A stretch of DNA of 29,226 bases from positions 1-29,226 of the forward strand of contig JAUVIG010000001.1 in NCBI GenBank assembly GCA_030592825.1, given 5' to 3'. Position 1 is the first letter of the stretch. Every line of letters begins with the position of its first letter. Of this stretch, positions 9,755 through 24,904 are shown in pieces. This DNA is from Chlorobiota bacterium. Its GTDB lineage: Bacteria > Bacteroidota > Bacteroidia > Bacteroidales > JAADGE01. The notes beneath the pieces are model-generated. The model had not been told where the DNA came from. It was given only the letters and a program-made list of their open reading frames with translations, and did not search any database. Both the position numbers and the translations under genes were made by a program.

Positions 9755-10972
9755 ATGGTAAGTTTTTTCAATTATACAATCGAAGTTATTATTTCAATGT
9801 TTCTGTTTTTTACGGTCTGGAAAATATTTTTGCAAAAAGAGACCTTTCACTGCTTGCATAGACTCTTCTTACTAACATCTCTGATTATATCTTTTATAAT
9901 ACCTTCTTTTGAATTTATTTCTCCTGTATCAAATCAACTCGGTTTTTCTGATTATATAACAAACACAATTCAAATTGAAGAAATAATAATCAATCCCTAT
10001 AACGACTCAATTTACCTCATTGATTGGTTAAGCTTATTCTATATTTCAGTTGTATTATTCCTGTTAATCAGGCTTCTGTCCCAACTACGATCTATCAAGA
10101 AATTCGCAAAAAAATGTGAAATTCAAATTTATCAAGAAAAGAAAATCTATATAACAGACAAAGATATTTCTCCGTTCTCGTTTATGAATTATATATTTTT
10201 TAATAAAAATGATATAAAAGGAATAAATTTCAATCGTATATTTCAACATGAACTTATTCATGTAAATCAAAAACATTCTATTGATATTATTTTACTTGAA
10301 TTAGTAATTATTTTTCAGTGGTTTAACCCTATGATATATATCTATCGAAAACATTTGAAAACGCTCCACGAATATTTATCGGACGAAAAAGTTATCCTGC
10401 AGGGCTTTCAAGCCGATGAATATAAAATGCTCTTGATTAAGCAACAAATTGGATTTCAATTTGGATTTGCAAATTATTTTAATAAATCTTTAACATTAAA
10501 ACGAATAAATATGATTAACAAACTTAAATCACATAAAACAGCAAAATTAAAATTATTATTTGCTGTACCTATTCTCGCTTTTACGTTTTTACTATTTTCA
10601 TTTTCAGGAAATAAAAATGAAACATACAATTATAGTGTTTCGGCAACCCAAGATACAATATATGACCAAGCAGATGAAATGCCTGAATTTCCGGGAGGTA
10701 AATTGGCACTCAGAAAATTTTTAGCAGAAAATGTCAAATATCCGGAAATTGCCAAAAAAAACAAAGTAGAAGGTACAGTTTTCATCAAATTTGTTGTTGA
10801 TAAAACCGGGAAAGTAGGCGATGCAGTAATACAAAAAGGCATTTCTGAAAGTATAGATAAAGAAGCTTTGAGAGTTGTTAAAATGCTGCCTCCTTTTAAA
10901 AAACCCGGATATAACAACGGGAAACCTGTTGACGTTTATTTTTCAATCCCAATCACTTTCAGTTTAAAATAA
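9755..10972 (+). CDS. M56 (BlaR1-like) metallopeptidase with C-terminal TonB domain
   Basis: SPFSFMNYIF, HELIHVNQKH (HExxH), WFNP, HEYLSD; C-terminal MPEFPGG...YPEIA...VEGTVFIKFVVDKTG...DKEALRVV. Confidence 0.92.
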   Translation: MVSFFNYTIEVIISMFLFFTVWKIFLQKETFHCLHRLFLLTSLIISFIIPSFEFISPVSNQLGFSDYITNTIQIEEIIINPYNDSIYLIDWLSLFYISVVLFLLIRLLSQLRSIKKFAKKCEIQIYQEKKIYITDKDISPFSFMNYIFFNKNDIKGINFNRIFQHELIHVNQKHSIDIILLELVIIFQWFNPMIYIYRKHLKTLHEYLSDEKVILQGFQADEYKMLLIKQQIGFQFGFANYFNKSLTLKRINMINKLKSHKTAKLKLLFAVPILAFTFLLFSFSGNKNETYNYSVSATQDTIYDQADEMPEFPGGKLALRKFLAENVKYPEIAKKNKVEGTVFIKFVVDKTGKVGDAVIQKGISESIDKEALRVVKMLPPFKKPGYNNGKPVDVYFSIPITFSLK

Positions 10973-11027: not shown

Positions 11028-11144
11028 CTAATTATTAATCATCATAGGCATTAACAGCATTAAAACATCTTCATTTTCTGAATCCGACTCAAAAGGTAAC
11101 ATTATTCCTGCTTTTGAAGGTTCAGACATTTCAAAAACAACTTC
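11028..11144 (-). pseudogene. dnaN: Orphan copy of the last 39 codons (including stop) of dnaN; attR-like direct repeat
   Basis: Encodes EVVFEMSEPSKAGIMLPFESDSENEDVLMLLMPMMINN*; 112/117 nt identical to 23771-23887. Confidence 0.95.
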
Positions 11145-11262
11145 AACTTATACGAAACTTCACACTTGGCTTGACACTGCCTTGGCAACAATAAACATAA
11201 TTTTGTTTTTTATAAATGATTGAATATCTTTGGTTTTCAGTGTAAAACCAAAACCATCACCG

Positions 11263-14200
11263 ATGAACCTTTTAAAGAAGCTCAAAAACCTCGCTTTACA
11301 AAGATTTATACCTTTAACTTTGTTTTTTTTTCTTTTAAGTTCCGTTCTTTTTGGTCAAAACGAAAAAATGAACAAAAAAACGAAGAAAGCTGATGATTTA
11401 CTTCAAAAGGCATTGGTTTTAAGTGATTCCGCAAAGTATGACAGTGCCATAGTTTTACTGACAGAAGCATCTGCTTTCTACAAAAAGAAAAAGAATAAAG
11501 AAAAGTATATTCATTGTAAAAATGAAATTATTAAACAATCAAGGTATATTAAATTTAATGATGAATTATTAAAACCTGCAAAGGAGAATATTGTTTATTC
11601 AAAGAAAATTTTAGGCAATGAGCATTATCTGACAGGTAATTGTTATAGTTTGTTGGGAAATATTTTTGCAGATATTAATAAAATTGACAGTGCATTGCAT
11701 TATTACAGCAAAGCAAAAGAAATTTGGGAATTGGATAAAAAGAAAAATAAAATGAGAATAGCCGATGCAAATTTAAATATCGGAAATATGCTTAAAAACA
11801 AAGGTGAGTTTGATAAAGCTGCTTCACTAATACACAAGGCATTAAAAACCAAAATTGATTCTCTCGGAAATAATCATCCCGATATTGCTGCTATATATAA
11901 TAGTTTAGGAGTTATGTATTATTATACAGGAGATATTGATTCATGCGCATTCTATTTAATGAAAATGCTGGAGATCAGAAAAAATTATTATGGAGAATCT
12001 CATCCTATAGTAGCAAATGCATATAATAATGTAGGAGTTGCATATAAAGTAAAAGGAGATTATGATAAGGCCCTAACATATTACAAAAAAGCTTTAGATA
12101 TCAGAAAAAAAAGTCTTGGTTTATTACATCCTAATTTGGCATTAAGTTACAGCAATATTGGTGTAATTTATGCAAATCTGGGAAAATATAAACTTGCAAA
12201 CGAATATTACGAAAAGGCATTAAAAATCAGGTTAGAACTTTTTGGTGAAGACCACATAGATGTAGCAGCTTGTTATACTAATATGGGTATTAATTGTATG
12301 GACTGCGGTGAAGGGGGAAGTGCCTTATTATATATACAAAAGGCATTCAAAATAATAATTGAAACATACGGTCAGGATAATCCGAATACATCAAGTGCCT
12401 ATAACAATATGGGGGCTGCTTATGTTTATGGTCTCGGTGATTTAGATAAAGCTTTAAAGTATTTTATAAGAGGCTTGGAACTAAGGCTTAAAACTGATGC
12501 AAATAATCCATTAATTGCAAGCAGCTATAATAATATTGGTGCTGTATATAAAAACAGGGGTGATTACGAACTTGCATTATCTTATTATAAAAACGGACTT
12601 AAAGTTATAAAGGATCAGTTTGGAGAACAACATATTGAGGCAGCTTCTGCATACAATAATATGGGTGAGGCATATTTATTACTAAACGATTTTGAGACAT
12701 CCCGAAAATATTTTGAAAAAGCACTTAATATCAGGTTAGAACTCTTTGGTGATAACTATCCCGGCTTAGCTGAAACATATCTTAATATTGGTACGGTTTA
12801 CAGCAAACTTGGTGAGCTTGAAAAGGAAAAAGAGTGTTATGAAAAAGGACTTGAAATTTGTTTGAAGAACTTTGATGAGAGAAATATCTCTGCTGCAAGA
12901 TTATATCTAAACCTTGCAATGAACGCGGCAGACATGAAAAATTATCATGAGGCAATTTCATTAACAGAAAAAGCTCTCAGCGTTCAAAAAGAAATATATC
13001 CGGAAGATCATCCCGGTATTGCAAAATCTTTGTCAAATTTGGGATTAATATATTATTTATCAGGGAATTATGATTTATCTGCTAATTATTATTTAAAATC
13101 TTTAGATGCAAACTATATCGGGAAACTAACTGACAATTTGGATTATTATTTAATATTGGATGAAATTCAATATCTCGAAACATTATCTGAACTGGCCGAT
13201 TTGTACTTTACGAAATATAAGCTTAAAAATGATATTCCGGCATTAAAAGAAGCGATTTCATATTATCAAAAAGCTTCCGATATGGTTTCTTTTCTGGCAT
13301 CAGGCTATTCTGTTGAAGCATCAAAGATGAATCTGCTTAAAAAGGCTGCCGGTATTTTTCAAAAGGCTTTAATTTCAACTGAAATCCTTTATCGAAATAA
13401 TAAGAATTATAAAAATACAGCAACGGCATTTGGTTTTTCAGAACAAAATAAGTCTTCTGTTTTATATGAATCAATAATAAGAAGTAATATTAAAACTGAA
13501 AACACATCGGACAGTTTGTGGGTTTTGCAACTGAATTTATCAGGAAAGATAAATTATTTAAAAACCAAGTTTTTGGCAGATGAGAATGATTCCCTCAATT
13601 TGCAAGCTAATAATGAGCATGATGCAGAACTCTCAAAAGCAATTATTGATTACCAAAGTGTTACAGAAGATATTCAATCAAGAAAACAGAATGCTCAGTA
13701 TGTTGTTTTCTATAAACAAACTTTGATTGATTCTATTCAAGCTAATCTAAAGCCCGTCGAATTAATGCTTGAATATTTTATTTCAGATTCAGCAGTTTAT
13801 TGTTTTGTTATCGGAAAACAAATCTTGGAGTTGGAAAAAGTAAATATTGAACCGGAATTTAAGGGTAGATTATTTGACTATATAACAAGCATAAAAAAAC
13901 ATCGCTTTTCTCAATTTCAGGAAAACAGTTACTACCTTTATAATAAATTGATTAAACCTGTTGAAAAATATTTTACAGATAAATCAAAACTAATTATTAT
14001 TCCTGACGACTATTTATTATACCTTCCTTTTAGTTCACTTATTTCACAAAAGCAAAATGATAATCAGATTATTAATTTTTCAAAATTGGATTACCTGATT
14101 AAGGATTACGAAATCGTATATCAATATTCGGCAAATTTATGGCTTGAAAATTTTCAAACAGGACAAATTAACAATACAACAAAAGGTTTTTTCGGTATTG

Positions 14201-14934
14201 CACCCTTTTCTACAAACGAAATTGTCAGCGAAATTGACAGTACAAATTTAAGTTTTTTAGATAAGGCACTTCCGGAAAGTGTATTGCGAAATATCACAAA
14301 CAGCAAGAATGAATATAAATCATTACCATATTCCGGTAAAGAAATAAATAGTATTGCAAAATTATTTGAGTTACAAGGTATTAGTACAAAAAATCTTATT
14401 GACACTGATGCATCTGAAAAAAATCTAAAGACCTTTGCTAAAGATTTTAAATACCTTCATATTGCTACTCACGGTATTATAAATAATATTCATCCTGAAT
14501 TAAGCGGATTAGTATTTATTAATGATAATAATGTGAGTAAAGATAAGGAACCGGACAATAAAACCAAACAAAGTTGGAAATTAGAACAAAATACGGATGG
14601 GATTTTGTATGCAAAAGAAATATTTGATTTGGACTTAAATGCTGAATTAGTAGTTTTAAGTGCCTGCGAAACCGGTATTGGTAAACTTGAAAAAGGAGAA
14701 GGTGTTATTTCACTGACAAGGGGATTTTTATACAACCGGGTACCAAATGTTGTTTTCTCTTTATGGAAAATCAACGATAAAAACGCCTGCGATTTAATGA
14801 CCGACTTTTACAGTAATATTTTGCAGGGCAAATCCTATGCTTCTGCACTTAGACACGCAAAGCTTAATATGATCAGTAATAAAGAAACTGCCTATCCGGG
14901 AAATTGGGCGGCTTTTTCTTTGATTGGGAAATAA
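11263..14934 (+). CDS. TPR-repeat CHAT-domain (caspase/HetF-like) protease, probably exported
   Basis: Signal-like FIPLTLFFFLLSSVLFG; roughly a dozen about-42-aa TPRs (HPDIAAIYNSLG-type); intact dyad motifs LHIATHG and VLSACETG; terminal PGNWAAFSLIG. ATG 11263 is preferred over TTG 11230 because TATCTTTG lies at about 11225-11232. Confidence 0.93.
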   Translation: MNLLKKLKNLALQRFIPLTLFFFLLSSVLFGQNEKMNKKTKKADDLLQKALVLSDSAKYDSAIVLLTEASAFYKKKKNKEKYIHCKNEIIKQSRYIKFNDELLKPAKENIVYSKKILGNEHYLTGNCYSLLGNIFADINKIDSALHYYSKAKEIWELDKKKNKMRIADANLNIGNMLKNKGEFDKAASLIHKALKTKIDSLGNNHPDIAAIYNSLGVMYYYTGDIDSCAFYLMKMLEIRKNYYGESHPIVANAYNNVGVAYKVKGDYDKALTYYKKALDIRKKSLGLLHPNLALSYSNIGVIYANLGKYKLANEYYEKALKIRLELFGEDHIDVAACYTNMGINCMDCGEGGSALLYIQKAFKIIIETYGQDNPNTSSAYNNMGAAYVYGLGDLDKALKYFIRGLELRLKTDANNPLIASSYNNIGAVYKNRGDYELALSYYKNGLKVIKDQFGEQHIEAASAYNNMGEAYLLLNDFETSRKYFEKALNIRLELFGDNYPGLAETYLNIGTVYSKLGELEKEKECYEKGLEICLKNFDERNISAARLYLNLAMNAADMKNYHEAISLTEKALSVQKEIYPEDHPGIAKSLSNLGLIYYLSGNYDLSANYYLKSLDANYIGKLTDNLDYYLILDEIQYLETLSELADLYFTKYKLKNDIPALKEAISYYQKASDMVSFLASGYSVEASKMNLLKKAAGIFQKALISTEILYRNNKNYKNTATAFGFSEQNKSSVLYESIIRSNIKTENTSDSLWVLQLNLSGKINYLKTKFLADENDSLNLQANNEHDAELSKAIIDYQSVTEDIQSRKQNAQYVVFYKQTLIDSIQANLKPVELMLEYFISDSAVYCFVIGKQILELEKVNIEPEFKGRLFDYITSIKKHRFSQFQENSYYLYNKLIKPVEKYFTDKSKLIIIPDDYLLYLPFSSLISQKQNDNQIINFSKLDYLIKDYEIVYQYSANLWLENFQTGQINNTTKGFFGIAPFSTNEIVSEIDSTNLSFLDKALPESVLRNITNSKNEYKSLPYSGKEINSIAKLFELQGISTKNLIDTDASEKNLKTFAKDFKYLHIATHGIINNIHPELSGLVFINDNNVSKDKEPDNKTKQSWKLEQNTDGILYAKEIFDLDLNAELVVLSACETGIGKLEKGEGVISLTRGFLYNRVPNVVFSLWKINDKNACDLMTDFYSNILQGKSYASALRHAKLNMISNKETAYPGNWAAFSLIGK

Positions 14935-15120: not shown

Positions 15121-15189
15121 ATTGCCAATACAAAATATTTGTCTATATTTGCACTTAATTCCGAAATTATCCAACTAATTAGTAACAGT

Positions 15190-16350
15190 ATGCAAAATAT
15201 AGACAGAATTTTGAGTATTGAACTTCCAAAAAATCAATCAGCATTTTTATGGGGGCCAAGGAAAACCGGAAAAACAACCTTATTAAAAACCAAATTTCCG
15301 CAAAGCATTGTTTATGATTTTCTCCAAACTGATTTATTTTTTAATTTTTTAAAAAAGCCTTCACTATTACGTGAACAATTGCTTGCAAAAAACGGGAAGC
15401 TATTGAATTCCCCTATAATTCTTGATGAAGTACAGAAAGTTCCTCAAGTTCTTGACGAGGTTCATTGGTTGATTGAAAATAAGGGAATGCGCTTTATATT
15501 ATGCGGTTCAAGTGCAAGAAAACTCAAAAGAGGACGAGCAAATATGCTTGGAGGGCGTGCGTGGCGGTATGAAATGTTTCCGTTAGTAACTGCAGAACTC
15601 GAAAATTGGGATTTATTAACAATCCTAAACAGAGGCTTAATACCGGCACATTACCAACAAAAAAATTACAAAAAATCATTACGTTCATATACACAGGATT
15701 ATATGAAAGAAGAAGTATTTGATGAGGGCTTAACACGTAATATTCCGGCATTTTCAAAATTTTTTGATTCTGTTGGTTATTCTCACAGTGAACTAATAAA
15801 TTATTCAAATATCTCTCGAGATTGCGGGATAAATTCAAAAACCGTGAGAGAGTATTACCAAATACTTGTTGATACATTAATGGGGCGTTTTGTTGAACCT
15901 TTCAAAAAGCAACAGAACAGACAGGTAATAACCAAGGCACCTAAATTCTATCTGTTTGATGTTGGTGTCGCAGGAGCAATCTCAAAACGTGTTTTAGAAG
16001 AAGAAAAGGGTGAATTGTTTGGAAAAGCATTTGAACACTTTATATTAATGGAAATTACTGCCTATAATTCATATAAAGAAATTGACTTTGAAATAAACTT
16101 TTGGCGAACAAAATCCGGTTTGGAAGTAGATTTTATTCTTGGCAACGGTGAAGTGGCAATTGAAGTTAAAGGAACAAACCGTGTTGATAATAAAAGTTTA
16201 AAACCCATTGAAACATTCATTGAAGAATATTCACCTGAAAAAGCTTTTGTTGTATGCAATGAAACAGAAGAAAGACTTAAAGGGAAGGTTCGCATAATAC
16301 CTTACAGGAAATTCCTGTCTTCGTTATGGGAAGGTGAGATAATTAAATAA
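15190..16350 (+). CDS. AAA_14-type ATPase with DUF4143 / PD-(D/E)xK-like C-terminus
   Basis: Walker A GPRKTGKT, Walker B IILDEVQ, CGSSA, PKFYLFDVG, EVDFI...AIEVK. ATG 15190 is preferred because TATATTTG lies at 15144-15151. Confidence 0.9.
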   Translation: MQNIDRILSIELPKNQSAFLWGPRKTGKTTLLKTKFPQSIVYDFLQTDLFFNFLKKPSLLREQLLAKNGKLLNSPIILDEVQKVPQVLDEVHWLIENKGMRFILCGSSARKLKRGRANMLGGRAWRYEMFPLVTAELENWDLLTILNRGLIPAHYQQKNYKKSLRSYTQDYMKEEVFDEGLTRNIPAFSKFFDSVGYSHSELINYSNISRDCGINSKTVREYYQILVDTLMGRFVEPFKKQQNRQVITKAPKFYLFDVGVAGAISKRVLEEEKGELFGKAFEHFILMEITAYNSYKEIDFEINFWRTKSGLEVDFILGNGEVAIEVKGTNRVDNKSLKPIETFIEEYSPEKAFVVCNETEERLKGKVRIIPYRKFLSSLWEGEIIK

Positions 16351-16391
16351 ATTTGTTCATGCAAAAATACAAATAAAAAAAAGTAAACTTC

Positions 16392-16421
16392 TTTGTAACG
16401 ATTTTTAATTTCCGGACATAT
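16392..16421 (+). promoter_or_regulatory. Putative ECF sigma promoter TTTGTAAC-N16-ACATAT
   Basis: Same motif and spacing as upstream of the sigma gene (23671-23700). Confidence 0.6.
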
Positions 16422-16488
16422 CAGTATAAATTTGCATGATTTCCTACTTGCAAAACTTTTTATTTTTATAACTCAAAAATTAAAGAAA

Positions 16489-17253
16489 ATGAAATCAAAA
16501 GGCATTCTGTTTAAAAACATAAGCAAAATAAGTTATCTGTTTTTTATAATAATTGTTATATTTTCATCGTGTAAAAAGGATGAAAATATTGAGCCTGTGC
16601 AAATTTCTGATTTAAGCGGATTTTGGATTATTTCAGAAACTATTACAGGTAATTGCCATGGAAGTGTTGAAACTGAACAAAAAACAGAAATATTTTCAAT
16701 TTATCAGCAAGACAGCAAGTTGACAATAACAATTTATCCTAACGGTGATATTCTTAAAGGAACTGTTGAAGGGGATAAAATCTCATGGGAGGGCACAATT
16801 CCTACCGTCAGCGGTAAAACGGATATTGATTTTACAGGTACTGCAACAAACAACGGAAATCAAGCTGCAGGAACTGCAAGTTGGGAATGGAACTCGGATA
16901 CATACAATTGCTCCGGCACTACAAAAATATCAGGCGAAAAGGTGATTCAAGAAACAGCCGATTTTTCAGGTGAATGGGAAGGGACTTGGAAAAGTGAGGA
17001 AAATTCGGCTGACGGAACATTTTCAGCAAATGTTACTCAAAATGACACAATATTAAGCGGGACTATAGATGTTCCCTTTTTAGATATATCAAATGCAAGT
17101 TTAAAAGGATTTGTGTCAGGTAATGTTGTTTTTTTTGGTGACATAGAAGAAAAAATAAAATTTGTCGGCATTATGAATGAGAATACAGGTGAAGGCACAT
17201 ACAGCTATATGTCTTTAAGCGATGAGGGTAGTTGGACAGGCACAAAACAATAA
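16489..17253 (+). CDS. Surface lipoprotein with two tandem beta-rich domains
   Basis: Lipobox IFSS-C followed by KKDE; internal repeat DLSGFWI.../DFSGEWE...; ATG 16489 is preferred. Confidence 0.8.
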   Translation: MKSKGILFKNISKISYLFFIIIVIFSSCKKDENIEPVQISDLSGFWIISETITGNCHGSVETEQKTEIFSIYQQDSKLTITIYPNGDILKGTVEGDKISWEGTIPTVSGKTDIDFTGTATNNGNQAAGTASWEWNSDTYNCSGTTKISGEKVIQETADFSGEWEGTWKSEENSADGTFSANVTQNDTILSGTIDVPFLDISNASLKGFVSGNVVFFGDIEEKIKFVGIMNENTGEGTYSYMSLSDEGSWTGTKQ

Positions 17254-17281
17254 ACTTAAATATAAATAAAAAATTTAAATT

Positions 17282-17875
17282 ATGAATCTATTTCTAAAAA
17301 TTCCGGCAAATAATAAAACCAAACAAATGACCATGAAAACTTTATCTGTTCTGTTTATTTCAATGATATTTATCCACCTTGTAAACGGACAAGCAAAGGA
17401 GATTCCAAACAAGAAAAACAATGTTTTTATTCTATTAAACAATCATCTTGAAAAGAGAGGAAGTGAGAATTATTATACTTCCAATCCCGACTTTTCAGTT
17501 GGGTATGAGAGAGACCTTTTTGGTTTTGGTAAAAATCGGTTTTATGCCGGTATAAGAACAGGTGCTTATAAGGAATATGTTCTCACCGGTTATGGCTGGA
17601 GTCATCCGGAAAAAACCAGATTTTTCATAGGCCTTTCTCCCTCATACGTGCTTAATATTTCTAAAAAATTCAGGTTACAAGTAAATCTGCTTTATGATGT
17701 GTTACTACCTGATGATTATGATGAGATTTGGTCTTATTGGGCAGTTGAACCGTCATTTCAGTATTTCGTCAAGAATTTCTATGTCGGTATTTCTGCTGCA
17801 ACAGGTGTTTTCCTTTTCTTCGATCCAAAAGCCTATATGGATAAAGCAGGATTAAAGCTTGGATACCAGTTCTGA
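17282..17875 (+). CDS. Secreted protein, probable small outer-membrane beta-barrel
   Basis: Signal peptide from M at 17327 or 17333 (MKTLSVLFISMIFIHLVNG); alternating aromatic strands; C-terminal LKLGYQF. Confidence 0.65.
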   Translation: MNLFLKIPANNKTKQMTMKTLSVLFISMIFIHLVNGQAKEIPNKKNNVFILLNNHLEKRGSENYYTSNPDFSVGYERDLFGFGKNRFYAGIRTGAYKEYVLTGYGWSHPEKTRFFIGLSPSYVLNISKKFRLQVNLLYDVLLPDDYDEIWSYWAVEPSFQYFVKNFYVGISAATGVFLFFDPKAYMDKAGLKLGYQF

Positions 17876-17969
17876 TAAATACAAATATCAATAAGGACTA
17901 AGTTTATTCCTGAATATTTTAATGGTACAAAACAATAAATTTTAAAGGTAATTTTAAAAAAATTTAATT

Positions 17970-19187
17970 GTGAACCAATTTCTAAAAAATATATTTACTA
18001 TCATTTTTGTAGTCGTTTTTATAATTTCTTGCAAAAAAGATGAACCGGAAATTCACGAAGATCCTATTGTTTATGATGAAACAGGAATGTTGGGATTGGC
18101 GGATTCACCTTGGCCTTGCGACGGACATGATTCACGAAGGACATCACAAAGTCCGTATAACGGACCAAGCAACGTAAATGCAATAATGATTTATGATTCA
18201 TCACCCGGATTTCATACATCTGATGCAACATCACCGGCAATTGATGCTTCCGGAAATTTATTCTGCATGGCATGGACACGTGTTTTAAAGTTTTCAAGTA
18301 ATCATGATTTTGAATGGGAAAACGGAACAGGTTTATATTTGAGGAATATTCCGCCCATAGCAAAAGACGGAACAATTTATATAGGCGGATTTTATCAGCA
18401 ATCTGTTACAAATTTCACGACCGGATTAATTATAGCTTTAGATCAATCAAATAACACTAAATGGGAGTTTAAAACACCGGACGAATATGACGGCGGAATT
18501 TGGGGTGCTTTAGCTATAGGCTCAAACGGAACAATATATACAGTTGATGCATCAGACGGTTTATTTGCAATAAATAAACAAGGTAAAAAACTTTGGTCTT
18601 ATCAACCTGACAGATTAACTTGTTCATCACCGGCAATTGCCCCCGACGGAACTATTTATGTTATTGATTCTGATGACAATCTGTACGCAATAAAACCCGA
18701 AGGAGAGCTTTTATGGAAATACTCTGCAGGTAAAGATATTAATTATGATCCTGTTACAGGAATTGACGGCACAGTTTATATAGGAACTGAAAATTCATTA
18801 CTGGCAGTCGACAAAATCGGTGACAAATTATGGGAATATAATTTACCGGATGCTGCAATAAATCGGCCATCTTTGGCAAATGACGGTACTATTATTATTG
18901 CCTGTGCCGATAATAATATTTATGCAATAAACTCTGACGGAAGTCTTAAGTGGAATTACAACACCAACGGAAATGTTACAAGCCCTACAACTATTGATGC
19001 TGCAGGCAGTATATATTTCGGTACAAAGCCGGATTCCGCAAAAATCATATCTATATCAAACCAAGGCCAACTTTTATGGGAGTATCCCTTGTGGTTAGGC
19101 TATGTCCAACCGGTTATCGGAGCTGACGGAACATTGTACGTTGGTACAGCAGAAGGTAAAATTTATGCACTAACTGAAACCAAATAA
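17970..19187 (+). CDS. Lipoprotein with PQQ-binding-like beta-propeller repeats
   Basis: GTG start; lipobox IIS-C followed by KKDE; SPWPCDGHDSRRT; repeated SSPAIAPDGTIY...LYAI...G..LWKY. Confidence 0.85.
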   Translation: MNQFLKNIFTIIFVVVFIISCKKDEPEIHEDPIVYDETGMLGLADSPWPCDGHDSRRTSQSPYNGPSNVNAIMIYDSSPGFHTSDATSPAIDASGNLFCMAWTRVLKFSSNHDFEWENGTGLYLRNIPPIAKDGTIYIGGFYQQSVTNFTTGLIIALDQSNNTKWEFKTPDEYDGGIWGALAIGSNGTIYTVDASDGLFAINKQGKKLWSYQPDRLTCSSPAIAPDGTIYVIDSDDNLYAIKPEGELLWKYSAGKDINYDPVTGIDGTVYIGTENSLLAVDKIGDKLWEYNLPDAAINRPSLANDGTIIIACADNNIYAINSDGSLKWNYNTNGNVTSPTTIDAAGSIYFGTKPDSAKIISISNQGQLLWEYPLWLGYVQPVIGADGTLYVGTAEGKIYALTETK

Positions 19188-19220
19188 AAAAATAATTCAA
19201 TAACTTTTAAAAAAAAAATA

Positions 19221-19901
19221 ATGACTAAAAAAATACATATCAGAATTATCAAGCTCACTTTATTAACATTAATCCCTTTTTCAATCTTTTCGCAGGATTT
19301 AAAGGATAAAAAAATCGAATTTTCAATAACCGGAGGTGCATTATTACCCGGGAAAGTACAAGGTTCTTATGAATCGGACTATAATCCTGATTCTACAGTT
19401 ACTATTACTAATAAAGTATCGCCTTTAATAAAATTTGTTACAGATTTTAACATATTACCATATTTATCAGTCGGTATAAATGTAAATTTTGCAAAATTCA
19501 ACATCAATGATATTTTATACAAAGATGAATCTATGAAGGAAGGTAACGAGGTTAGTTTAGGTTACTGGGACGACAGAGAACATATAATTCCTTTGGATGA
19601 TATTAAGATGCTTGAAACAAATGTATCTGTTAAAGGACGTTTTATTTTAACTGATAAGATTGTGATTAAACCATGTGTGTATCTGGGTTACAGAAAAACC
19701 TTTTCGAGCAGCCCGGATGCAAGGGAAAAGGGCTTGGTCTTAAATTATAATATTGAATATCAGTATTATTTCAAAACAAACCATTTTTTAACAGCAGATC
19801 TCGGTATTTTTTCTCAACCTTACGGAGGTGTGACTCATGTGGCACATGTTCGCTCATTTGGGGTGCCTTATATTACAATAGGTTATGGATTTGCAATTTA
19901 A
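19221..19901 (+). CDS. Secreted protein, probable outer-membrane beta-barrel
   Basis: Signal peptide ending FSIFS|Q; strand-like pattern; C-terminal YITIGYGFAI. Confidence 0.6.
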   Translation: MTKKIHIRIIKLTLLTLIPFSIFSQDLKDKKIEFSITGGALLPGKVQGSYESDYNPDSTVTITNKVSPLIKFVTDFNILPYLSVGINVNFAKFNINDILYKDESMKEGNEVSLGYWDDREHIIPLDDIKMLETNVSVKGRFILTDKIVIKPCVYLGYRKTFSSSPDAREKGLVLNYNIEYQYYFKTNHFLTADLGIFSQPYGGVTHVAHVRSFGVPYITIGYGFAI

Positions 19902-20043
19902 ACAAAAATCTAAATACTTCATTTTCCTTTTTATGATTGTATTTGTGTTTTTAGGAATCTTAATAAACTGTGCATTGAGATCATTGAGAATTGACGGTGA
20001 TTTAATTCATACTTTTGATTATTTGTAAGCTAAAAATAAACTT

Positions 20044-22035
20044 ATGAAATACATGGCAAACATAAATATAAGAAATTCTTTTTTGCTAATCCTGTTCTTT
20101 TCTGTAACAATATTTTTATTGCCTAAAAACGTTATTGCCGATGATTCTATAAGAATTGAGTTAGATGAAATATTGTTTTTTGAATCCGGAAATGATGTTC
20201 CCGATAAAAAAGACAGAAAATATATTAATCATTTTAAACCCGAAACACAATATATTAATGTTGAATTAAACATTAAAAACCTGAATTATAAAAAAGAAGA
20301 TAAAGAATATAAAATAACATTTATTTGGAACTATTTAAACGGAGACGAATTTGGAAGATCAGAGGCGACATTTAATGTGAAATCAGAATGGTCAACTGCT
20401 TATATAAACCGGGGTTGGGGATTTACCGATAAAGGAAATTGGCGACTTGGCAGATACACGGCTAAAATACTTATTAACGACAGCCTCTTAGCAGAAAAAG
20501 ACTTTTTTATTACCAAATTTGATGAGGATTTTATTTCACTTCCGGAAGATAATAAAGTCATTGAAAACCTACAGAATATTTCTTCAGATATCAAGTACAA
20601 AATCCTGCATCAGTATAAAATAGTACCGCAACCATATTTTAATTATTTTTATGATATTAATTTCAGTGAAGACGGGAAAGATATCGCATATTCTATTGCT
20701 AATTATGAACATCAAAATGCCACTTCATATTCGGGTTCTTCAACATCAAGAGATATGCTCTTATTCAAAAATAACAAACAAATAATTCCGAATTATTTTA
20801 TGATACGAGCCGATTTTGATAAAAATCTTAAAAACTTAACTTATTTCGGATTAAAACTTAAAACTTCTGATATAAAGGATGCTGAAGGAAACGGTTATTA
20901 TAACGGATTGCAATTGTATAACAATACATACTATATCCCGTTAGATATAAGTCCCGACAATAAAAAACATATATATATACTGAATACGATGCCCATATTG
21001 AAATCTTCATTCACATGGGACAATGCCTACGAATTTTTAATGATAAACAATAAAAAAACACAAGCAGAACACTTAAAAACTGCAAAATCAATAAGAATTA
21101 CTAAATCTACCCAATCAATATTCTCTCGAACAAATTCAATAGTATTTATTAAAAATTCGGATAATTCCTATAATGCATTATATACGGCAAAATACAAGTT
21201 TGACAATCAGGCTCATTATGCATTATTTAACGAAGCAAAAAGAATTTCACCACAATTTGACGGCTACATCAGTATACCCTATTTATCTCCTGATGAAAAA
21301 AATGTTGCATACATTGTAAAGGATAAAAAAGAGTGGTTTGTAATGATTAATGATAAAAAAATAACAAAAGGATACAAAGAAATTAAAGCGTCAAAAGCAT
21401 TAAACAACGTAAAAAACGAAATAGTTTTTTGTAAGCAAGGGAAAAATGTTATTTACCAAGCTAAAATAAAAGGCGATTGGTATGTAATGAAAGGCGATGA
21501 AATAATATCCGACGGTTTTTCAAAAATTGAATTAATTACAGTGAATCCTGCCGGAGACAAGATTGCTTATATTGCAAAATCCGGAAAGACTTGGAGTGCA
21601 TATATTAATAAAAGAAGAATTTCAGAAGAATTTGATCGTTTTGGGAAAGAAATCAAATTCAGCCCCGACGGTAATAATATTGCTTATGCAGCAGGAACTG
21701 AAGACAGTATGTTTGTAATGATAAACAATTGTAAAGTATCATCAAATTTTAAAATTCAATATCAAAACTCATTATACATGGGAAAACAACCGCTTGCAAT
21801 CACTAATCTTACATTTAACAAAACAGGTGATAAGCTTGCATATATAGTTATTTTTGAGTATTCCGGAGAAGAATATGTGGACAAAATGAAACATTCTTAT
21901 ATCATGATTAATGATGCTCGGATTTCACCCAAAATGTACAATGCATCAATACACTCAAATAAACCGGGTGAATTATTTTATGCAGGAATAGATATTTCTG
22001 ATTTAATTCTTCATCATGTTAAGATTGAATTTTAA
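20044..22035 (+). CDS. Secreted protein: N-terminal Ig-like domain plus TolB/PD40-like beta-propeller
   Basis: Signal peptide; ...GNWRLGRYTAKILINDSLLAEKDF; blades FSEDGKDIAY, ISPDNKKHIY, LSPDEKNVAY, VNPAGDKIAY, FSPDGNNIAY, FNKTGDKLAY. Confidence 0.65.
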   Translation: MKYMANINIRNSFLLILFFSVTIFLLPKNVIADDSIRIELDEILFFESGNDVPDKKDRKYINHFKPETQYINVELNIKNLNYKKEDKEYKITFIWNYLNGDEFGRSEATFNVKSEWSTAYINRGWGFTDKGNWRLGRYTAKILINDSLLAEKDFFITKFDEDFISLPEDNKVIENLQNISSDIKYKILHQYKIVPQPYFNYFYDINFSEDGKDIAYSIANYEHQNATSYSGSSTSRDMLLFKNNKQIIPNYFMIRADFDKNLKNLTYFGLKLKTSDIKDAEGNGYYNGLQLYNNTYYIPLDISPDNKKHIYILNTMPILKSSFTWDNAYEFLMINNKKTQAEHLKTAKSIRITKSTQSIFSRTNSIVFIKNSDNSYNALYTAKYKFDNQAHYALFNEAKRISPQFDGYISIPYLSPDEKNVAYIVKDKKEWFVMINDKKITKGYKEIKASKALNNVKNEIVFCKQGKNVIYQAKIKGDWYVMKGDEIISDGFSKIELITVNPAGDKIAYIAKSGKTWSAYINKRRISEEFDRFGKEIKFSPDGNNIAYAAGTEDSMFVMINNCKVSSNFKIQYQNSLYMGKQPLAITNLTFNKTGDKLAYIVIFEYSGEEYVDKMKHSYIMINDARISPKMYNASIHSNKPGELFYAGIDISDLILHHVKIEF

Positions 22036-22044
22036 GAAACGACT

Positions 22045-22800
22045 TTAGTTCCTGATTATAAATTTGCCCGTAAATACTGATTCTTCTGTAGTTTCCAATT
22101 GCCAGTAATAAAGACCGGGTTTAAGTTTTTGTTCAAAAAGGTAAGTAGTATCAATTTGCTTTTCGAATATGATATTTGCTTTATTATCAAAAACTATGAA
22201 ATTAAGTGAATCAAAATCTGCTGATTCCCATCTGATTTTGATAATCTCATTCGGTTTAAATTTATAATTAAATTTCGGAGACAAAACTTCAAGATTTCCG
22301 GCTCTTACAGAATTTTCTATAAAATTTTCAAATTCAGGCATAATTTTGTATGCTTCTGCTAATAGATTTGTGTTTTTTTCATATTCATCATTAAATTCTT
22401 TGTTTATGATAGTCGAATCTTCTTTTTTGAATGTAATTGTATCAATATTTTCGGATTTTAATGATACAACATTTTTTCCAATTTTATTTTTATCTGATAA
22501 TAAAATGCCTAACCATGTTATTGAAACAAGAACTAATAATGTAGCCGCAATTTTTAGTAAAAAAGAAAAGTTGATTACAGGCTTCTTGCTTGTTTTTGGA
22601 ATTGCAAATTTATTTTGATTGATTTCTTTCGGTAACTCATTCCTGATAATACCGATTATTGCTTTTCTTTTTTCCAGTGTATCCATACATTCATCGCAAA
22701 ACAAAAGATGTTCTTCCAGTCCGTTTTCTTCCTCTTCTGTTAATTGATTAAGTAAGTACTTGTCAATTAAATCGTTATTTATAATATCATTATGATTCAT
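22045..22800 (-). CDS. Zinc-binding (zf-HC2-like) transmembrane anti-sigma factor
   Basis: IDKYLLNQL...EEHLLFCDEC (HxxxCxxC), a single TM helix, and a C-terminal Ig-like domain (LKPGLYYWQL); 18 bp downstream of the sigma gene. Confidence 0.85.
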   Translation of the reverse strand: MNHNDIINNDLIDKYLLNQLTEEEENGLEEHLLFCDECMDTLEKRKAIIGIIRNELPKEINQNKFAIPKTSKKPVINFSFLLKIAATLLVLVSITWLGILLSDKNKIGKNVVSLKSENIDTITFKKEDSTIINKEFNDEYEKNTNLLAEAYKIMPEFENFIENSVRAGNLEVLSPKFNYKFKPNEIIKIRWESADFDSLNFIVFDNKANIIFEKQIDTTYLFEQKLKPGLYYWQLETTEESVFTGKFIIRN

Positions 22801-22818
22801 ATCTTAACAATCAGCATT

Positions 22819-23655
22819 TTAAATGTAACCGTGCAGTCGTGCCGGTTTTTCAAGTTTTGCAAGTGCTCTGTGTTTGATAACTCTGCAATTTACTTCTGTA
22901 ATATTTAATTTTTCAGCAATATTTTTAAGTTTTTCCTCTTTAAAGAATACTTCAAAAAGTATATTTTTTTCTGACTCGTTTAAATCTTTAAATAAGTTAG
23001 ATATAAATTTTTCTTTATCTGATTCCGGTATATACTGATCATAATTATCAAAATAATCCGGTTCAAAATCATTAGTATTAAAAAAGAGATTCTTTTTCTT
23101 TTCTCTGTAATATTCAAAGAGTTTTAAGTTAATTATTTTAAAAATATATGATTTTAATAATCCGGAGTCCTTAAAAAAAAGTTCATTTTTTTGTAATTTG
23201 TTTAGAAAAACAACTTGCGCTTCCTGATAAAATTGTTCCTGCAGTTCAATATCTGAAAAACCTTTTTTTATAAGCCAGAATTTAATTCTTCTTTTTAATA
23301 ATATATCAAAAGTCAACCATACTTTTTTATCATTTCTATATAATAAATCAAAATAGTTTTGAAACAGCCTTGGAATTTTTTCATTTGCTTTCGATATTAT
23401 AAAATCTTTATATTCTGAGAAAGTACTTATTGTTTCCTGTCTGTAAGTTATTTTTTGTATTATATCCGAAAATAAATCATCAAATAATACTTTTCGGCTG
23501 CAAATTTCATCCTTTCCGGCTATCCAATCAAGTTCAATATATTTTTTAGAGAAATACCGGGAAACAACTATCTTCAAGTTATTCTTCACTATAGAAATCG
23601 CTTTCTTTTCACCTAAAGTTAGATTATTAATCAGCTCTTTAAATTTATCATGCAT
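22819..23655 (-). CDS. ECF-type sigma factor with an N-terminal extra sigma2-like domain
   Basis: sigma2 FYQEAQVVFLNKL...LKSYIFKIIN; sigma4 LNESEKNIL...LKNIAEKLNITEVNCRVIKHRALAKL; about 95 extra N-terminal residues. Confidence 0.85.
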   Translation of the reverse strand: MHDKFKELINNLTLGEKKAISIVKNNLKIVVSRYFSKKYIELDWIAGKDEICSRKVLFDDLFSDIIQKITYRQETISTFSEYKDFIISKANEKIPRLFQNYFDLLYRNDKKVWLTFDILLKRRIKFWLIKKGFSDIELQEQFYQEAQVVFLNKLQKNELFFKDSGLLKSYIFKIINLKLFEYYREKKKNLFFNTNDFEPDYFDNYDQYIPESDKEKFISNLFKDLNESEKNILFEVFFKEEKLKNIAEKLNITEVNCRVIKHRALAKLEKPARLHGYI

Positions 23656-23670
23656 CCCTTTATATTTATG

Positions 23671-23700
23671 AGATGTAAAAAATCACTCAAATGTTACAAA
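23671..23700 (-). promoter_or_regulatory. Putative autoregulatory ECF promoter TTTGTAAC-N16-ACATCT
   Basis: Ends 15 nt before the sigma ATG; matches 16392-16421. Confidence 0.65.
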
Positions 23701-23716
23701 AAATATGTAAATAAAC

Positions 23717-23750
23717 AAAAAGCCTGCAAGAATTTTCAAACAGGCTTTTT
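23717..23750 (-). terminator. Intrinsic terminator downstream of intact dnaN
   Basis: AAAAAGCCTG...CAGGCTTTTT 10-bp stem with T/A runs on both sides. Confidence 0.8.
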
Positions 23751-23770
23751 TATAATATCTTCAATAACAA

Positions 23771-24904
23771 TTAATTATTAATCATCATCGGCATTAACAG
23801 CATTAAAACATCTTCATTTTCTGAGTCCGACTCAAAAGGTAACATAATTCCTGCTTTTGAAGGATCAGACATTTCAAAAACAACTTCTTCCGAACCGATA
23901 TTTTGAAGTATCTCCGATAAGAAAACAGATTTAAAACCAATTTCCATATCATCGCCTTCGTACTGACATACTAAACGTTCATGTGCAGAAATTGAAAAAT
24001 CAATATCTTGTGCCGAAACTATTATTTCATTTGCCGTAAAATGTAATTTTATCAAATTGCTTGCCTGATTTGAGAAAACTGATACACGTTTCACAGTATT
24101 GTAAAGATCAGACCTGTTAATAATTAATTTATTAGGGTTTTCAGTAGGTATAACTGACGCATAGTTAGGGTATTTCCCTTCTGTTAATCGGCATATTAAT
24201 TTAAAACCGAGAAACGTGAATACAGCATTTTTTTCATCAAACTCAATAGATACTACCTCATCAACCAATCCGACAAGTAAACCTTTTAATAAATTAGCAG
24301 GTTTCTTCGGCAATATAAAAGATGAATCCTTATCGGCATTTCCGTCGGTTCTTTTGTATCTTACAAGCTTATGCGAATCAGATGCAACGAATGTAATATC
24401 TTCCTTTGTCATTGAAAAAAATATCCCGTTCATAACAGGCCTTAACTCATCATTTGCAGTTGCAAAAACGGATTTGTTAATACCGCTGTCCAAAAGTTTT
24501 GCATCCAATTTGAATTTCACGGATGTATCTTCGGACAATTCCGGAGCTTGAGGATATTCGTCAGCAGGAGAACCGACTACACTGAACTTTCCGTTTTCAG
24601 AAAGTATATTTACAGATAAAGTTTCAGAATCAATCTCAAAAGTCAGAGGTTGTTCCGGAAACTCTTTTAAAATATCTAACAAACGTTTTGCTTCCAGAGC
24701 AATTTTTCCTGAACCTTCACTATTCTCAATGCTTAGCTTTGTAATTAATGTAGATTCTAAATCTGATGCAGTTATGGTTAATTCTCCTGTATCAAGATCG
24801 AAAAGGAAACTGTCGAGTATCGGAATTGTAGATTTTCCGCTGATTGCTTTACTTACACTTAGCATATGTGAAAGTAATTCTGAACTGGAAACAATAAATT
24901 TCAT
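23771..24904 (-). CDS. dnaN: DNA polymerase III beta sliding clamp
   Basis: PILDSFLF, ASDLE, ELRPVMNG, VASDSHKL, GKYPNY, IGFKSVFL, LLMPMM. Confidence 0.97.
   Translation of the reverse strand: MKFIVSSSELLSHMLSVSKAISGKSTIPILDSFLFDLDTGELTITASDLESTLITKLSIENSEGSGKIALEAKRLLDILKEFPEQPLTFEIDSETLSVNILSENGKFSVVGSPADEYPQAPELSEDTSVKFKLDAKLLDSGINKSVFATANDELRPVMNGIFFSMTKEDITFVASDSHKLVRYKRTDGNADKDSSFILPKKPANLLKGLLVGLVDEVVSIEFDEKNAVFTFLGFKLICRLTEGKYPNYASVIPTENPNKLIINRSDLYNTVKRVSVFSNQASNLIKLHFTANEIIVSAQDIDFSISAHERLVCQYEGDDMEIGFKSVFLSEILQNIGSEEVVFEMSDPSKAGIMLPFESDSENEDVLMLLMPMMINN

Follow-up and report, generated by a model that had tools for sequence, protein, structure and literature searches.

The window analysed here is a stretch of 29,226 nucleotides (contig C48, JAUVIG010000001.1) from an uncultured Bacteroidales bacterium whose draft genome, G000, comprises 4.18 Mb in 655 contigs at 31% G+C and is 89% complete. 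It contains a gene for a sigma factor of the extracytoplasmic function (ECF) type, followed by a gene for a membrane anti-sigma factor, and on the other strand a set of five genes for exported proteins, referred to below as the envelope operon. Each of the two gene sets is preceded by a copy of the same two-part motif, and this motif and its relation to the sigma factor are the subject of the present report. The features concerned are listed here; G and L numbers denote related genomes and loci.

16394..16399, plus strand: -35-like element TGTAAC of the putative envelope-operon promoter, invariant in the window, G011, L012 and L020 (alignment A2) and also present in L038 and L039
16417..16422, plus strand: -10-like element CATATC of the same promoter, 17 nt past TGTAAC; ACATATC is invariant in A2
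16489..17253, plus strand: gene 1, a 254-amino-acid (aa) lipoprotein with a signal peptide and then a lipobox-like FSSC, predicted to form two lipocalin-like beta-barrels
17282..17875, plus strand: gene 2, a 197-aa exported protein with a C-terminal aromatic residue, outer-membrane barrel-like by eye
17970..19187, plus strand: gene 3, a 405-aa PQQ_2/BamB-like beta-propeller lipoprotein according to domain models
19221..19901, plus strand: gene 4, a 226-aa exported protein with homologues in L012 and in the putatively motif-driven operon of L039
20044..22035, plus strand: gene 5, a 663-aa exported protein whose homologue in L012 has faint PD40-type matches
22045..22800, minus strand: membrane anti-sigma factor, 251 aa, with an N-terminal zf-HC2 domain (HxxxCxxC) and a single hydrophobic span; its outer domain measures about 150 aa (from the zf-HC2 match and the translation)
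22819..23655, minus strand: ECF-type sigma factor, 278 aa, extended at its N-terminus by about 100-125 aa, from TIGR02937, Sigma70_r4 and a structure model
23670..23675, minus strand: -10-like element CATCTC of the putative sigma promoter, 14 nt upstream of the ATG
23693..23698, minus strand: -35-like element TGTAAC of the same promoter; all six upstream regions of orthologues in alignment A3 have TGTAACA

The sigma protein matches the NCBIfam ECF superfamily model TIGR02937 over residues 130-270 (43.6 bits, cut-off 42.9) and Pfam Sigma70_r4 (30.5 bits, cut-off 24.1). Its AlphaFold (AF2) model is all-helical with a predicted local distance difference test score of 79.5, and the top Foldseek matches of the model in the PDB are all sigma factors, mostly of the ECF type (SigL, SigH, BldN, SigW and RpoE). 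The anti-sigma gene comes next on the same strand and its product matches zf-HC2 (22.9 bits, cut-off 22.2). The pairing of the two genes is kept in all related loci, as is typical of ECF sigma factors and their cognate anti-sigma factors. Homologues of the sigma factor are rare, with ten clusters at 77-45% identity, and about 40 full-length sigma clusters at 50% identity exist among 1.84 billion representatives. Related loci were found neither by a single-sigma search of genome contigs nor by an alignment-based search of metagenome contigs. The extension (residues 1-125) is kept throughout the family, and the model predicts it with confidence to be helical. A BLASTP comparison of residues 1-105 with residues 100-195 gave only the shared overlap, a result that neither supports nor excludes a second sigma2 copy in the extension.

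At the plus-strand site, TTTGTAAC (16392-16399) is followed by a 16-nt spacer (16400-16415), ACAT (16416-16419) and then AT. The minus-strand site has the same order, with TTTGTAAC at 23700-23693, a 16-nt spacer at 23692-23677, ACAT at 23676-23673 and then CT. The sites are 7.3 kb apart and oriented inward toward the convergent gene sets. A sequence-only reading of the window had described both sites with their 16-nt spacers and inward orientation, and had claimed that the same motif precedes the sigma operon and the lipoprotein run. Both statements hold: the site at 23700-23673 (minus strand) leads into the sigma and anti-sigma genes, and the site at 16392-16419 (plus strand) into the five exported-protein genes (16489-22035). 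The pattern TTTGTAAC-N16-ACAT has these two matches in the window where 0.01 would be expected, and none of 100 dinucleotide-preserving shuffles reached two.

Comparison with sigma orthologues, covering those with retrievable DNA, shows which part of the motif is kept. Every one of them, from 77 to 46% identity, has TGTAAC-N17-CATnTC ending 13-15 nt before the ATG (L013/L017, 77%; L008/L009, 62%; L014/L015, 61%; L016, 49%; L012, 46%), and the search upstream of orthologous sigma genes that the sequence-only reading had proposed thus returned the motif wherever it was made. In the six aligned upstream regions (A3), conservation is confined to TGTAACA and CAT.TC, and the rest has diverged. The conserved core is accordingly TGTAAC-N17-CATnTC rather than TTTGTAAC-N16-ACAT. 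The TTTG with which TTTGTAAC begins is present at both window sites and is not conserved in relatives, where CTG, ATG or TTG stands in its place, for example ATGTAAC in L016. The position of the motif upstream of the sigma factor's own operon across orthologues is what autoregulation predicts.

The motif is conserved at the target operon as well. Four other loci share the layout of the window, in which a TPR-CHAT gene, the motif and the operon follow one another and are convergent with the anti-sigma and sigma genes: L012 (sigma 46% identical), L020 (lipoprotein 53% identical), L038 (from a Bacteroidales metagenome-assembled genome, MAG) and L039 (sigma 39% identical). The motif precedes the first operon gene in all four. 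The distance from CATATC to the ATG, counted from the sequences, is 64-66 nt in the window, G011, L012, L020 and L038, and 79 nt in L039. Upstream of the lipoprotein gene, TGTAACGATTTT and ACATATC are unchanged between the window, its relative G011, L012 and L020, whereas the surroundings have diverged. A reverse search with TGTAACGATTTT-N10-ACATATC in 596 Gb of genome contigs returned four matches. In L038 the match is flanked by the TPR-CHAT gene and the lipoprotein homologue. The remaining matches, three in number, come from MAGs of Clostridia and Flavobacteriaceae and were taken as chance matches because the fetched stretches contain no homologue of a module protein.

Within the operon, gene 2 is missing from G011 and has a homologue near the sigma-divergent operon in L029, and homologues of gene 3 with 41-44% identity are the putatively motif-driven divergent genes in L021, L022 and L027. 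In the window the two predicted sigma-dependent units converge at 22035-22045, where their stop codons are only 9 nt apart and a search for terminator-like hairpins gave none. The induced transcripts may therefore overlap head-on.

More distant relatives were found in 13 loci in genome contigs of Bacteroidales and other MAGs, with sigma factors of 26-39% identity. Here the sigma ATG follows the end of the motif after 0-4 nt, and a second copy lies on the opposite strand before a divergent gene. The scan of these loci, which allowed TGTAAT and spacings of 16-18 nt, gave 15 matches in 159 kb where base composition would lead one to expect about one by estimate, and all of them adjoin the sigma gene. 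Past the anti-sigma gene, L026 and L039 contain additional small genes that appear to be driven by the motif.

The near-zero gap between motif and ATG is seen in L021 (9956-9991), L023 (1786-1817), L024, L025, L026, L027 and L029. If the C of CAT lies near -11, the sigma mRNA of this distant clade would start at or beside the A of the ATG and be leaderless, or nearly so. The assumed -11 placement follows the position of the CGT in many ECF promoters. Leaderless mRNAs are uncommon in Bacteroidota and make up 5.5% in Flavobacterium psychrophilum (PMC9723704).

A natural control is provided by L018 and L019, where homologues of the lipoprotein (54-62% identical; L018 also has a propeller homologue) follow the gene for a LytTR regulator. 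There is no sigma gene within 10 kb and no TGTAAC motif in these two loci; direct repeats of the TTGTTATTC(A/G)TCCC type replace it (positions 9850-10000 in both L018 and L019). Because the lipoprotein loci that are linked to LytTR and have no sigma gene are without the motif, the motif tracks the sigma factor and not the lipoprotein gene. From this comparison, operons of one type seem to have switched between different kinds of regulator, the sigma factor and LytTR.

Conserved upstream blocks can also be operators, and elsewhere the homologous operon is under a LytTR regulator. The motif might then be bound by a repressor or an activator and not be a promoter at all. This is very unlikely, as the motif is asymmetric and two-part, has a rigid spacing of 17 nt (16-18 across the family) and is always oriented with the gene. 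In the distant relatives its end lies so close to the ATG that no room is left for another promoter, and the repeats of the LytTR-linked loci are quite different from it.

In the whole genome, TTTGTAAC-N16-ACAT has four exact matches and a reversed control has six, so the exact words are not over-represented. Two of the four lie inside long open reading frames (ORFs), and the window sites are the only intergenic ones, which answers the genome-wide motif search suggested earlier. The refined pattern TGTAAC-N17-CATnTC has five matches, about the chance level of neighbouring spacings, and again only the two window sites are intergenic. A scan allowing one mismatch gave 102 matches, 12 of them intergenic including the window sites, and the other ten are unconvincing as members of a regulon. 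A weight-matrix scan of the genome gave no further good intergenic site; the high matrix scores of the window sites are circular because the matrix was built with those sites. The G+C content of 31% and the counts of the reversed control would agree with the view that the two sites share their words by chance. Against this stand the expectation of 0.01 matches in the window and the position of the motif, which is kept in loci down to 26% sigma identity; such conservation already refutes the explanation, and its probability is practically nil.

The genome has about 23 genes of the sigma-70/ECF type, and a -35 element of the TGTAAC type is common among ECF promoters. The motif could for these reasons be a promoter that is read by another alternative sigma factor of the host. 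We consider such cross-recognition improbable. The motif accompanies this particular sigma family in more than 20 loci of differing context, directly before the sigma gene, and target genes with a LytTR link do not have it. In pattern scans of the 4.18-Mb draft, no other ECF gene was preceded by the motif.

The sequence-only reading had also drawn attention to a box of the housekeeping type close to the plus-strand site:

16427..16434, plus strand: housekeeping-type -7 box TAAATTTG, possible lineage-specific second promoter; TAAGTTTG in G011, missing in L012 and L020

The box is indeed there, and it is restricted to the window and its close relative G011. In Bacteroidota the sigma A promoter has TTTG at -33 and TAnnTTTG at -7 (box from -12 to -5) (PMC9723704). 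TAnnTTTG is the main promoter box of the present genome, enriched about threefold upstream of long ORFs with a peak 20-50 nt before start codons. With TTTG embedded in TTTGTAAC as a -33 element and TAAATTTG as a -7 box at the lipoprotein site, the two sites could be read as ordinary housekeeping promoters. It is hard to credit this explanation: the TTTG prefix is exchanged among relatives, the distance from TTTG to TAAATTTG is 31 nt, and TAnnTTTG precedes neither a sigma orthologue nor the lipoprotein genes in L012 and L020. Sigma A promoters have this box some 5-12 nt before the start site; among the loci compared it is present at the lipoprotein genes of the window and G011 only, and for this reason it cannot explain the conserved motif. 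To judge by its limited occurrence, TAAATTTG may be a lineage-specific, weak second housekeeping promoter at the lipoprotein gene of the window. A promoter and terminator scan of the Escherichia coli type was at chance level (48 versus 43 +/- 7) and had nothing correctly oriented at the two sites; this model is uninformative for Bacteroidota. One further element is located just upstream of the sigma promoter:

23714..23746, minus strand: terminator-like hairpin and T-run after dnaN, identified by eye

Its loop exceeds 8 nt, which is why the terminator scan did not list it.

Taken together, TGTAAC-N17-CATnTC very probably forms the promoter that the adjacent ECF-type sigma factor recognises, serving the sigma factor's own operon and the five-gene envelope operon. 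The sequence-only reading had interpreted the motif as defining the promoter of the sigma factor and its regulon, and the comparative evidence from orthologues, target operons, distant pairs and the LytTR-linked loci speaks for that interpretation. The -35 element contains AAC, as that reading had noted to be frequent among ECF promoters; it is TGTAAC at all sites compared, with TGTAAT at some distant sigma promoters. The spacer is as rigid as the 16-17 nt of this promoter type, with 17 nt nearly everywhere and 16 or 18 nt at a few sites. The -10 element, judged from the alignments, is a variant of the ECF type with CAT for CGT.

Several observations weigh against this assignment. The CGT of a typical ECF -10 element is not found and CAT is invariant instead. 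Pfam Sigma70_r2 was undetected in the sigma factor and the TIGR02937 cut-off is cleared by less than one bit, which points to a weak sigma2 region; given this and the extra N-terminal region, membership of the ECF group (group 4) on the basis of sigma2 and sigma4 is marginal. TAAATTTG at the lipoprotein promoter of the window could give expression independent of the sigma factor, and sequence alone leaves room for one of the other sigma factors, about 23 in all, to recognise the motif. Among 25 genomes of the taxonomic family, G000 and G011 alone have the sigma gene, the lipoprotein gene and the two promoter patterns. This co-occurrence agrees with the assignment, yet it does not count as independent evidence, since the module is passed on as a single island. 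Finally, further members of the regulon may be missed because the genome is an 89%-complete draft.

The presence, position and conservation of the motif, its rarity in the genome and its co-occurrence with this sigma family are observed; the course of events that follows is predicted from them. If the assignment is right, the minus-strand copy (23698-23670) would drive the sigma/anti-sigma operon and create positive autoregulation. The plus-strand copy (16394-16422) would drive the operon for the double-lipocalin lipoprotein, the two small barrel-like proteins, the BamB-like propeller lipoprotein and the 663-aa protein. In the resting state the membrane zf-HC2 anti-sigma factor would hold the sigma factor. 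A signal would inactivate the anti-sigma factor, probably through a linked exported TPR-CHAT protein. The released sigma factor would bind core RNA polymerase, with sigma4 reading TGTAAC and sigma2 reading CAT. Transcription is predicted to start a few bases past CATnTC, which would give the sigma gene a leader of about 10 nt and the lipoprotein gene one of about 60 nt. The freed sigma factor would then amplify itself and induce the envelope operon. A look-up of RNA runs for 16300-23800 listed only cold-seep metatranscriptomes from the same study, in which next to none of the words of this stretch occur.

The TPR-CHAT protein is encoded upstream of the envelope operon:

11263..14934, plus strand: exported TPR-CHAT protein, gene without the motif, housekeeping-type TAATTTTG box at 11198-11205

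A homologue lies beside the sigma/anti-sigma pair in L007, L012, L014, L020-L024, L026-L031 and L039 and is part of the layout in L038, which amounts to nearly all loci. The link persists down to 26% sigma identity, the kind of constant linkage expected of a system of the DdvA/DdvS type. DdvS and DdvA of Myxococcus xanthus are an ECF sigma factor and a transmembrane zinc anti-sigma factor that bears a periplasmic TPR-CHAT domain (PMC11506125). Fused DdvA-like proteins have been found only in Myxococcota and in one Comamonas (PMC11506125). The window and DdvS/DdvA share the ECF sigma factor, the zinc-finger anti-sigma factor, an extracytoplasmic TPR-CHAT part and sigma-dependent promoters including the sigma factor's own, which are predicted here. 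They differ in that no fusion is present in the window: the 251-aa anti-sigma factor has no CHAT or TPR match and the TPR-CHAT protein is a separate exported protein from a gene of more than 1200 aa. The predicted regulon is also different, with envelope proteins in place of defence by CBASS (cyclic oligonucleotide-based antiphage signalling system) and CRISPR (clustered regularly interspaced short palindromic repeats), and the host belongs to another phylum.

The promoter itself can be compared with that of Bacillus subtilis SigX, which has a -35 element TGTAAC and a -10 element CGWC (PMC12153292). For SigX and SigW together, promoters with TGTAAC or TGAAAC, a spacer of 16-17 nt and CGWC or CGTA have been described (PMC12153292). 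The likeness to the window lies in the -35 hexamer TGTAAC and the 17-nt spacing and, as predicted for the window, in a regulon of envelope proteins and a sigma gene that is co-transcribed with a membrane zinc-finger anti-sigma gene and has the motif in its own promoter. Unlike SigX and SigW, the window has CATnTC rather than CGxC as -10 element, and its sigma factor is longer at the N-terminus by about 100-125 aa, with a sigma2 that can hardly be recognised. Its predicted regulon outside the sigma operon is a single operon, its host is an uncultured member of Bacteroidales, and it is linked to an exported TPR-CHAT protein.

Within Bacteroidota, the SM6 (ECF-type) promoters of F. psychrophilum have a CGT box near -10 and mapped start sites (PMC9723704). 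Like the motif in the window, they form a class of alternative-sigma promoters distinct from TAnnTTTG, and their targets include a sigma/anti-sigma operon. SM6 differs in its CGT box, its wider regulon with type IX secretion genes and its mapped start sites, the window motif being known from sequence. As for the housekeeping promoter of Bacteroidota, the window resembles it by the TTTG overlapping TAAC at both sites and by TAAATTTG near the lipoprotein site, and differs from it because neither TTTG nor the -7 box is conserved with the motif. A literature search for TGTAAC promoters in Bacteroidota gave no paper with the word TGTAAC among the matches listed.

On a more tentative level, one that could well turn out otherwise, the module might be a split and mobile switch resembling DdvA/DdvS. 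A separately exported caspase-like TPR-CHAT protease would gate the zinc anti-sigma factor, and the extended ECF sigma factor would then read the unusual CAT -10 element and induce a small outer-membrane and lipoprotein assembly together with, in part of the family, its own leaderless mRNA. Such a circuit is of an ordinary kind, since ECF factors that act on their own promoters through a TGTAAC -35 element are well known; the family of uncultured Bacteroidales in which it occurs is rare and unstudied. The analysis supplies a precise, testable candidate promoter and a very small predicted regulon, the envelope operon and the sigma operon, for a rare and uncharacterised ECF family. DdvA/DdvS is the only studied sigma switch linked to TPR-CHAT, and a defined output promoter would therefore ease a reporter assay of the Bacteroidales version. 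The interest is moderate and lies chiefly in this handle on an unstudied sigma family tied to TPR-CHAT proteins.

The module sits in a mobile island. Direct repeats of 116 bp of the 3' end of dnaN (11029-11144 and 23771-23886, with five mismatches) bound 12.6 kb that contain the TPR-CHAT gene, an AAA_14/DUF4143 gene, the envelope operon and the anti-sigma and sigma genes, with both promoters inside. The island is present in two of the 25 genomes of the taxonomic family. The AAA_14/DUF4143 ATPase gene (15139-16350) stands between the TPR-CHAT gene and the promoter; it is partly deleted in G011, and nothing occupies this position in other lineages.

Elsewhere in the genome, contig C56 (L034) has two similar non-coding copies at about 1480-1760 and 2340-2620, with starts about 860 bp apart and several GC-rich hairpins. 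They are located between gidA-like and uvrC-like genes, which were named by eye from their translations. A comparison of the repeats with Rfam gave no match. Each copy is preceded by the motif with one mismatch, TGTAAC-N17-CATATA.

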